A stretch of 64,000 bases of DNA from Eledone cirrhosa (taxonomy: Eukaryota). This document shows, in pieces, positions 4,196-5,877 of this stretch (position 1 is its first letter; each line of letters starts with the position of its first letter). The position numbers and the translations under genes were made by a program. The notes beneath the pieces are model-generated. The model searched no databases. It had not been told where the DNA came from and saw nothing but the letters and a program-made list of their open reading frames with translations. The stretch spans positions 380,122,001 to 380,186,000 of the forward strand of contig OZ024740.1 in assembly GCA_964016885.1 (NCBI GenBank), in the 5' to 3' direction.

Positions 4196-4713
4196 AATAT
4201 AATATATTTTATTCACCAAATGCCGTCTATTTAAAAGCAACCCAGATCTCTTATATATAGAGTAGCACATCACAACTCAACCTGAGATCAGTTTGGCAAT
4301 CGCCACCGACGAATGCGAGAAAGTTCTCCAGGAAAGTTAACCACCGATGTTAACAAAAACTTTCTAGATCTAAAAAACCAAATTGTAAAATCATAACATT
4401 ATAAAATTACATTGTTTAGAACTACAAATGAAATCATTCTTTTCCTTTTTTCAAATATACCTAACTCTACCAAGGATTTCACACATTTTCCAATATATAT
4501 ATATATATATATATATATATATGAATGAAGTTAATATGTCCAAGGATACTAGGTACCCCTAGAAATACATAGGTTGTCTATGATTCAAGGTTGTTCAATG
4601 GTATTAATTTGATACACCAGAACTTTAATATTAAGATAAGCAGAACAAGTAAAATTCAATCAATTCTTTAAAATACATTAAAAAATATAATATAAATATT
4701 TACCTCTCCTAGT

Positions 4714-4797
4714 GGCCCTTACTGATCAGTTTCGCTTTGTAAAACCTCATAAATCCGATGGATTTCTGATGGAAAACCAAAGCTCATCAGAGAAGCA
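4714..4797 (-). ncRNA. Type I hammerhead ribozyme
   Basis: Minus strand: gcttct CTGATGA gctttg...caaagc GAAA CTGATCAG TA agggc. Confidence 0.85.
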
Positions 4798-5220
4798 TTT
4801 TCCTTTCCTAGGGCTAAACGTCCCAGGAACGACAAAATATATGGCCTCCTGCCAGCAAATAAAGGTCTGAAAGGTCGTAAAAGTGACCCGTATGTAAACT
4901 GGACCGAAGTAAAAGCGGGAAAATCAAAGACTTGCTGTCTACAATTACTACTAAAAAAAAATAAAAATAAAAATAAAAATAGCAGCTAAATAGAACAACA
5001 GATTTGTTCTCAACATAACGGAATATAATGAATTAAGTTAATATGTCCAAGGATACTAGGTACCCCTAGAAATACATAGGTTGTCTATGATTCAAGGTTG
5101 TTCAATGGTATTAATTTGATACACCAGAACTTTAATATTAAGATAAGCAGAACAAGTAAAATTCAATCAATTCTTTAAAATACATTAAAAAATATAATAT
5201 AAATATTTACCTCTCCTAGT

Positions 5221-5304
5221 GGCCCTTACTGATCAGTTTCGCTTTGTAAAACCTCATAAATCCGATGGATTTCTGATGGAAAACCAAAGCTCATCAGAGA
5301 AGCA
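5221..5304 (-). ncRNA. Type I hammerhead ribozyme (tandem copy)
   Basis: Same as 4714-4797, one 507-bp period away. Confidence 0.85.
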
Positions 5305-5708
5305 TTTTCCTTTCCTAGGGCTAAACGTCCCAGGAACGACAAAATATATGACCTCCTGCCAGCAAATAAAGGTCTGTATTAAAGTTCTGGTGTATCAAAT
5401 TAATACCATTGAACAACCTTGAATCATAGACAACCTATGTATTTCTAGGGGTACCTTGAACATATTAACTTCATTCATTATCCTCCGTTATGTTGAGAAC
5501 AAATCTGTTGTTCTATTTAGCTGGTATTTTTTTTTTATTTTTTTTTTTTTTTTAGTAGTAATTGTAGACAGCAAGTCTTTGATTTTCCCGCTTTTACTTC
5601 GGTCCAGTTTACATACGGGTCACTTTTACGACCTTTCAGACCTTTATTTGCTGGCAGGAGGTCATATATTTTGTCGTTCCTGGGACGTTTAGCCCTAGGA
5701 AAGGAAAA

Positions 5709-5792
5709 TGCTTCTCTGATGAGCTTTGGTTTTCCATCAGAAATCCATCGGATTTATGAGGTTTTACAAAGCGAAACTGATCAGTAAGGGCC
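5709..5792 (+). ncRNA. Type I hammerhead ribozyme (inverted copy)
   Basis: CTGATGA at 5716-5722; stem II GCTTTG/CAAAGC; GAAA at 5773-5776; palindromic stem III ACTGATCAGT; GUA cleavage triplet. Confidence 0.85.
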
Positions 5793-5877
5793 ACTAGGAC
5801 AGGTAAATATTTATATTATATTTTTTAATGTATTTTAAAGAATTGATTGAATTTTACTTGTTCTGCTTATCTTAATA

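Follow-up and report, generated by a model that had tools for sequence, protein, structure and literature searches.

Animal non-LTR retrozymes consist of tandem units of a few hundred nucleotides that carry one type I hammerhead motif each, have a low GC content and no coding frame, range from monomers to long multimers, and reside in genomes that contain Penelope elements (PMC7229834, bioRxiv 10.64898/2026.07.22.740005). They yield linear and circular RNA (PMC7229834) and have been described as non-autonomous Penelope derivatives whose mechanism is open (bioRxiv 10.64898/2026.07.22.740005). Penelope-like insertions often include an inverted 5′-truncated copy, carry a tail of 30-40 bp on one side, and target microsatellites; non-autonomous multicopy forms also exist (PMC8557442). 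The tail is found on one of the inverted pLTRs, and self-priming has been proposed for Penelope (PMC3846280). When assayed in vitro on AT-rich DNA, the Penelope enzyme of the anole cleaves each of the two strands and extends them, two internal starts define the tail, and the RNA is used uncleaved, cleavage not being needed (PMC11167929). For all of these sources, our statements concern the portions of the text that were covered.

Here, we describe an insertion of this known kind, a non-LTR retrozyme or non-autonomous Penelope-like element, in a 64,000-nucleotide stretch of the Eledone cirrhosa genome (contig OZ024740.1; "the window"). The mobile repeat to which it belongs is small and non-coding, contains a predicted self-cleaving ribozyme and is present in several hundred copies. 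With the retrozymes it has in common the tandem units of a few hundred nucleotides, one type I hammerhead motif per unit, the low GC content, the lack of a coding frame, the span from monomers to long multimers, and Penelope elements in the genome that contains it. Our main reading, to which we assign a probability of roughly 0.72, is that this non-coding repeat with its hammerhead motif was inserted once into (TA)n, likely by a Penelope-type reverse transcriptase that made two cDNAs on the two target strands from two fixed RNA sites. The unit of 485-507 nt is longer than the 170-400-nt RNAs of the 2020 retrozyme paper and lies inside the 51-972 range of bioRxiv 10.64898/2026.07.22.740005. In the covered text of the retrozyme papers insertion ends are unmapped, whereas two fixed sites are found here; conversely, circular RNA is known for retrozymes, whereas the ribozyme here is predicted from the sequence.

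The insertion is flanked on both sides by (TA)n, as identified by TRF and in the sequence itself, with the left target half at 4493-4522 and the right half, (TA)n(TG)n, at 5875-5991. We number the unit as window position minus 4522, modulo 507. The forward block (4523-5376) contains 1.68 tandem units with a period of 507, running from unit 1 through 507 to 347, and its two tandem copies differ at 2/347 sites (0.6%). Its hammerhead-sense strand is the minus strand, and therefore its cDNA would read in the plus direction from the left flank. The inverted arm (5377-5878), with its hammerhead-sense strand on plus, is the reverse complement of 4628-5137, with 96.3% identity over 510 columns by BLAST and pairwise alignment; it differs from the forward copy by an 8-nt deletion, about 11 substitutions, and slippage within an A-rich tract. 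The two arms are 2.2% apart, compared to 0.6% between the forward tandem copies. With BLAST E values of 0 for the tandem repeat and 1e-121 for the inversion, both are far outside chance. The arms meet head to head at 5376/5377 in a blunt junction where unit 347 abuts unit 108 with zero overlap, reading GGTCTG on the left and TATTAAAG on the right. While this inner end of the inverted arm is sharp, its outer end may lie anywhere in unit 106-110, because the terminal bases also match the (TA)n flank; the arm therefore corresponds to 506-510 reference nt. The preliminary description held that the inverted block is one complete 507-nt lap, and this is borne out (5377-5878 against 4628-5137) within the 5-nt ambiguity, or +/- 3 nt. 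No RT and GIY-YIG frame is present in 4523-5877, where the longest stop-to-stop frame is 89 aa.

A motif scan found CUGAUGA, stem II, GAAA, palindromic stem III and GUA in 3/3 units, with the core CUGAUGA/GAAA/UH and three stems in each. These predicted type I hammerheads (CUGAUGA ... GAAAC UGAUCA GUA) lie on the minus strand in the forward copies (4720-4790 and its tandem copy at 5227-5297) and on the plus strand in the inverted arm (5716-5786), where the cut site is intact. Comparison of 52 aligned copies, namely the window and 51/68 motif regions from L111-L199, one per locus, gave 92% pairing in the hammerhead helices versus 32-51% when the helices were slid. Stem III was 100% paired, by U-A in 34 and C-G in 18 of the 52, a swap that may be one event because the copies are kin and not independent. 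The palindromic stem III suggests that the putative ribozyme may cleave as a dimer. Rfam gave 0 matches at gathering in the window and only chance miRNA-type matches at E<=5. Among public sequencing runs, none contained half of the query words; one RNA run gave no match, and four runs guessed to be RNA returned only 31-61-nt AT-rich pieces, all of these being contigs from other organisms. The palindrome TTAATATTAA (4625-4634, with another internal copy at 5132-5141), where the preliminary description had the lap opened, is not the predicted ribozyme site. The predicted cut falls elsewhere, between 4720 and 4719 (unit 197/198) and ~90 nt from this palindrome, which is an internal copy of a start site that we call site A. 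No copy was found to start at the predicted cut: a probe joining (TA)n to it had 0 matches genome-wide.

The 3.0-Gb genome contains 1932 candidate places for the unit. An exact probe joining (TA)n to unit 106 (TTAATATTAA, site A) had 437 genomic matches, and a probe for (TA)n near unit 1-6 (site B) had 147 on the minus strand, with 0 matches for either control; the 451 forward-strand site-B matches are inflated through overlapping hits. The two junction classes delimit a ~105-nt "tail" (4523-4627, minus strand in the window) that separates site B (unit ~1-6) from site A (unit 106-110). The polarity of the family is uniform, with a fixed end at the ribozyme 3′ side and a ragged end at the 5′ side. 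Start points are fixed, and only the inner arm ends vary. Variable start points, as suggested in the preliminary description, are therefore at odds with the 437 exact site-A and 147 minus-strand site-B junctions; fixed termini in other copies, which it had itself named as evidence against its proposal, are what we found for the priming ends. The different start of the forward copies is the family's standard second site (B), and the head-tail junction at 4523/5030 is that same second start site and not an RNA monomer boundary. We considered whether DNA-level events, such as a replication template switch or satellite rearrangement, could have produced the family with no RNA step. Microsatellite flanks and an AT-rich palindrome are prone to breakage and tandem arrays can expand by unequal crossover, but hundreds of dispersed copies with one polarity, a fixed 3′-side end and a ragged 5′-side end, together with covarying ribozyme helices, make such an origin extremely improbable.

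To describe the arms we used a position-ordered sample, the first 100 site-A junctions among the matches listed (of 437). Ten of these, the window's own junction included, were left out of the mapping, and eight left-out site-A arms were 70-991 nt or longer, none being one lap. The 90 mapped places gave 89 distinct junctions, from which five were dropped (two internal repeats, an N gap, a run-off of the stretch, and a rearranged case), leaving 84 A arms. Among the matches listed, these 84 arms were 21-1977 nt long, with a median of 401. A TA run was also close to the far end in 70/84, (TA)n at the start being present by selection. An inverted partner was found for 27/84 A arms (among the matches listed), and 25 of these 27 partners terminate at site B, 21 by alignment and 4 short ones by motif. 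There were no A+A pairs among the 27 inverted insertions. Conversely, of 17 loci picked on site B, 11 carried an inverted partner that terminates at site A, 4 lacked a partner and 2 were otherwise arranged, with no B+B pairs. The window insertion is a standard B+A member of this multi-copy family. An inner-end cluster at unit 113-123 that appeared in the first loci was rejected as selection bias, the query having needed the whole unit.

This recurrent pairing bears on two other explanations of the inversion. First, the inversion could be an assembly artefact. No bridging read or contig was listed for the junction at 5376/5377 in 4 runs, but these depart from the window sequence at so many positions that they are uninformative. 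However, 25 of the sampled loci show the same A+B layout, and the inverted arm has a private 8-nt deletion and substitution found in no other fetched locus and is therefore no mirror of the forward arm; we consider an artefact barely credible. Second, a single cDNA (or an antisense transcript) could have primed itself or folded back to give the inverted arm, or template switching could have done so, with no second target priming. Self-priming on an antisense template has been proposed for head-to-head Penelope inversions (PMC3846280, in the text covered), and palindromic junctions, as expected of fold-back, are seen at four loci (L003 164/164, L080 186/187, L142 208/208, L114 277/275). Yet inner ends lie far apart on the unit in most loci, for example at 347 and 108 in the window, and fold-back alone does not account for a copied arm that ends at the other fixed site against (TA)n, as in 25/27 cases. 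We regard this explanation as quite unlikely.

Two primed cDNAs would fit the layout. Ribozyme polarity would make both outer ends the RNA 3′ sides and the junction 5′-to-5′, which is expected if each target strand primed one cDNA. We propose that an RT/GIY-YIG enzyme of the Penelope type, provided in trans, would nick both strands within (TA)n. Priming from one 3′ end at site B would yield 4523-5376, and priming from the second at site A would yield 5878-5377. As template the enzyme would use RNA of one source, either multimeric and uncleaved or re-ligated. Each cDNA would halt more or less at random, and the cDNA ends would be joined head to head, usually via a 1-11 nt overlap; the A arm of the window would have chanced to halt one lap past its start. 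Overlaps of 1-11 nt were found at 18/22 inner junctions of the family, and the window junction, unlike these, has none. This counts against our preferred explanation, as do the 2.2% divergence between the window arms compared to 0.6% between its tandem copies, a tail of ~100 nt in place of 30-40, the lack of an Rfam match, and the failure to find an autonomous partner at the 49 loci compared. In LINE-1 twin priming, both target 3′ ends likewise prime cDNA, and the resulting inversion is joined by microhomology, but the second primer anneals at variable places, whereas both starts are fixed in the family described here. In 14/14 loci the likeness between the two arms equalled or exceeded the median for other loci; in this comparison the window arms were 0.8% apart versus 4.3% to other loci, and 1/50 was as close. 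Both arms of a locus belong to one subfamily, as expected if they were copied from a single pool of source RNA, although gene conversion at a later time could also have made them alike.

The genome encodes candidate enzymes: 796-aa RT + GIY-YIG frames are present, and one long frame contains both RVT_1 and GIY-YIG (Pfam). When the unit was compared with 49 loci that surround Penelope-type ORFs, which represent one ORF group and a small part of 7320 candidates, no similarity of note emerged; the best match (E 0.012) lay in A-rich sequence. None of the compared loci resembles the unit, and we therefore infer mobilisation in trans. The family shares with Penelope-like elements the head-to-head inversion, 5′ truncation, one-arm tail, microsatellite targets and 5′ microhomology joining (PMC8557442, PMC3846280, in the text covered), and it has the features of non-autonomous Penelope-like forms: fixed 3′ ends, an optional tail, ragged 5′ ends, and a tandem plus inverted layout. 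It differs in having no ORF, in a tail of ~100 nt compared to 30-40, and in that no matching pLTR was found for the 507-nt unit among the 49 loci compared. The architecture is best read as the known inverted-copy-plus-tail arrangement with an unusually long tail (~100 nt). In common with the anole Poseidon PAc are two internal RT start sites, an AT-rich target, cutting and extension of both strands, a ribozyme cut that is unused as a terminus, and a first start ~90 nt 3′ of the cut, the distance from cut to start working out to 85-92 nt there and 88-92 nt here (PMC11167929, in the text covered). In contrast, PAc starts in an AC-rich stem-loop without target homology, whereas site A has 4-5 nt (ATAT) in common with (TA)n; and the covered text of that study found no start-site difference between strands, whereas the arms here almost always use different sites.

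What the template looked like can be addressed in part. The preliminary description had invoked reverse transcription of a multimeric or circular RNA from variable start points; reverse transcription of a multimeric (or circular) ribozyme-bearing RNA fits, while the variable starts do not. In a set of 81 A arms, from which three near-duplicates among the 84 had also been taken out, 70 read through the predicted ribozyme cut, and the RNA template would therefore have been uncleaved or re-ligated. The sequence fits either a circle or a tandem transcript. Arrays of ~485-nt units occur at other genomic loci, including near-regular arrays starting at site A of ~20 units at L177 (G000:C1:382892100-382902156) and ~15 units at L036. 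A bolder version of the mechanism is that a Penelope enzyme dimer would start cDNA on each target strand at a fixed site of its own, the two sites lying ~100 nt apart on a ribozyme-circularised RNA, with rolling-circle copying giving A+B head-to-head arms and arrays up to ~20 units, and that in the window the RT would have gone once around the circle and halted where it began. We consider this version unlikely; if true, the family would be a genome-scale footprint of animal retrozyme integration. As a separate observation, arm ends are about twofold enriched in unit 175-199 (window 4697-4721), immediately ahead of the predicted cut: 13 were seen and 5.9 were expected (P = 0.007), this being one among nine unit intervals inspected. 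Most of the 13 fall at 176-189, which is AT-rich, and run-off at unit 197 fits about 4/21 distinct loci, fewer than at 185 or 189. The excess could reflect AT-rich microhomology or run-off from cleaved RNA.

A rival reading is a deliberate stop after one lap: the ribozyme would have made a circular monomer, and the RT, starting from site A, would have halted on meeting its own primer or because the endonuclease cut TTAATATTAA again once it was copied into DNA. The inner end of the window's inverted arm lies 1 nt off the centre of a palindrome that doubles as a start site, and another exact one-lap arm, not inverted, is known at L109. Further arms come close, at 515 nt (L141) and 514 nt (L187), 7-8 nt past one lap, and at L263 (G000:C1:92192311-92195336), a locus of a diverged subfamily whose two arms measure 517 nt and 520 nt, 10-13 nt past. 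The arrays of ~15 (L036) and ~20 units fit rolling-circle copying, retrozyme circles have been shown in other animals (PMC7229834, in the text covered), and the sampled A arms are compatible with a small one-lap excess. As a family rule, however, one lap does not hold: among the matches listed, arms of 506-510 nt numbered 0/84, with 2/84 at 500-520 nt, 32/84 of at least 507 nt, and 30/84 reaching or passing 511 nt. With a stopping rate of 0.0025 per nt (n=81 A arms), ends in unit 100-115 were 2 compared to 1.4 expected (P = 0.40), and an exact lap is expected by chance in about 0.5% of arms, or about 2 among 437 (5-nt range), compared to the two known, in the window and L109. A probe across unit 108 gave 389 pattern matches, of which the window alone breaks onto a non-A base; this probe is blind to breaks followed by A, and one further match is a point change. 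Moreover, units within single arms are 4-6% apart at L134, L135, L142 and L192, which argues against a single circle unless these are old copies. We judge a deliberate one-lap stop to be very unlikely. The exact one-lap length of the inverted arm is most likely due to chance and does not demonstrate a circular template.

Several other elements lie in the window. A decayed Penelope-type RT/GIY-YIG fragment at 3073-4189 (minus strand) has about 75% DNA identity to the 796-aa frames elsewhere; it represents a different insertion of greater age that does not resemble the 507-nt unit, and 0/3 of its short frames were matched in Pfam. Adjoining the 507-nt-unit insertion is a (TA)n-flanked inverted pair (2029-2117 / 4371-4492, 91%), whose right arm has an additional ~33-nt tail, of the classical size, and whose arms share a start at TATAT. 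Inverted or tandem blocks, most of them abutting TA runs, are found at 21845-22289, 22469-22866, 22957-23574, 48586-48855, 52476-52744, 55667-56052 and 61596-62619, and tandem blocks at 51297-52093 and 53048-54021. These are probably other families that used the same insertion route. Hammerhead-like motifs in unrelated sequence are present at 51730-51797 (plus) and 52643-52674 (minus), the latter recurring at L239 as a 332-nt tandem. A dispersed ~200-nt repeat family, SINE-like in appearance, occurs at 6935-7252, 27012-27158, 36527-36659, 39158-39906, 49244-49449 and 62083-62189. A frame bearing an LFADD motif (8871-9113, plus) resembles a LINE reverse transcriptase fragment.

Our literature search found no description of the 507-nt family or of A+B pairing in retrozymes; subscription papers were mostly outside its range, and data on insertion ends may exist in the supplements to PMC11167929 and to PMC8557442. 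What is of modest interest here is that A+B pairing extends across the family and that the tail reaches ~100 nt. How Penelope inverted ends and tails form, and by what route retrozymes insert, are left open in the covered text of the literature found. With several hundred young copies, two fixed starts and A+B pairing that is nearly strict, the family is a natural data set that favours priming from both target strands, and it offers a short RNA with defined start sites that is suited to an in vitro test.
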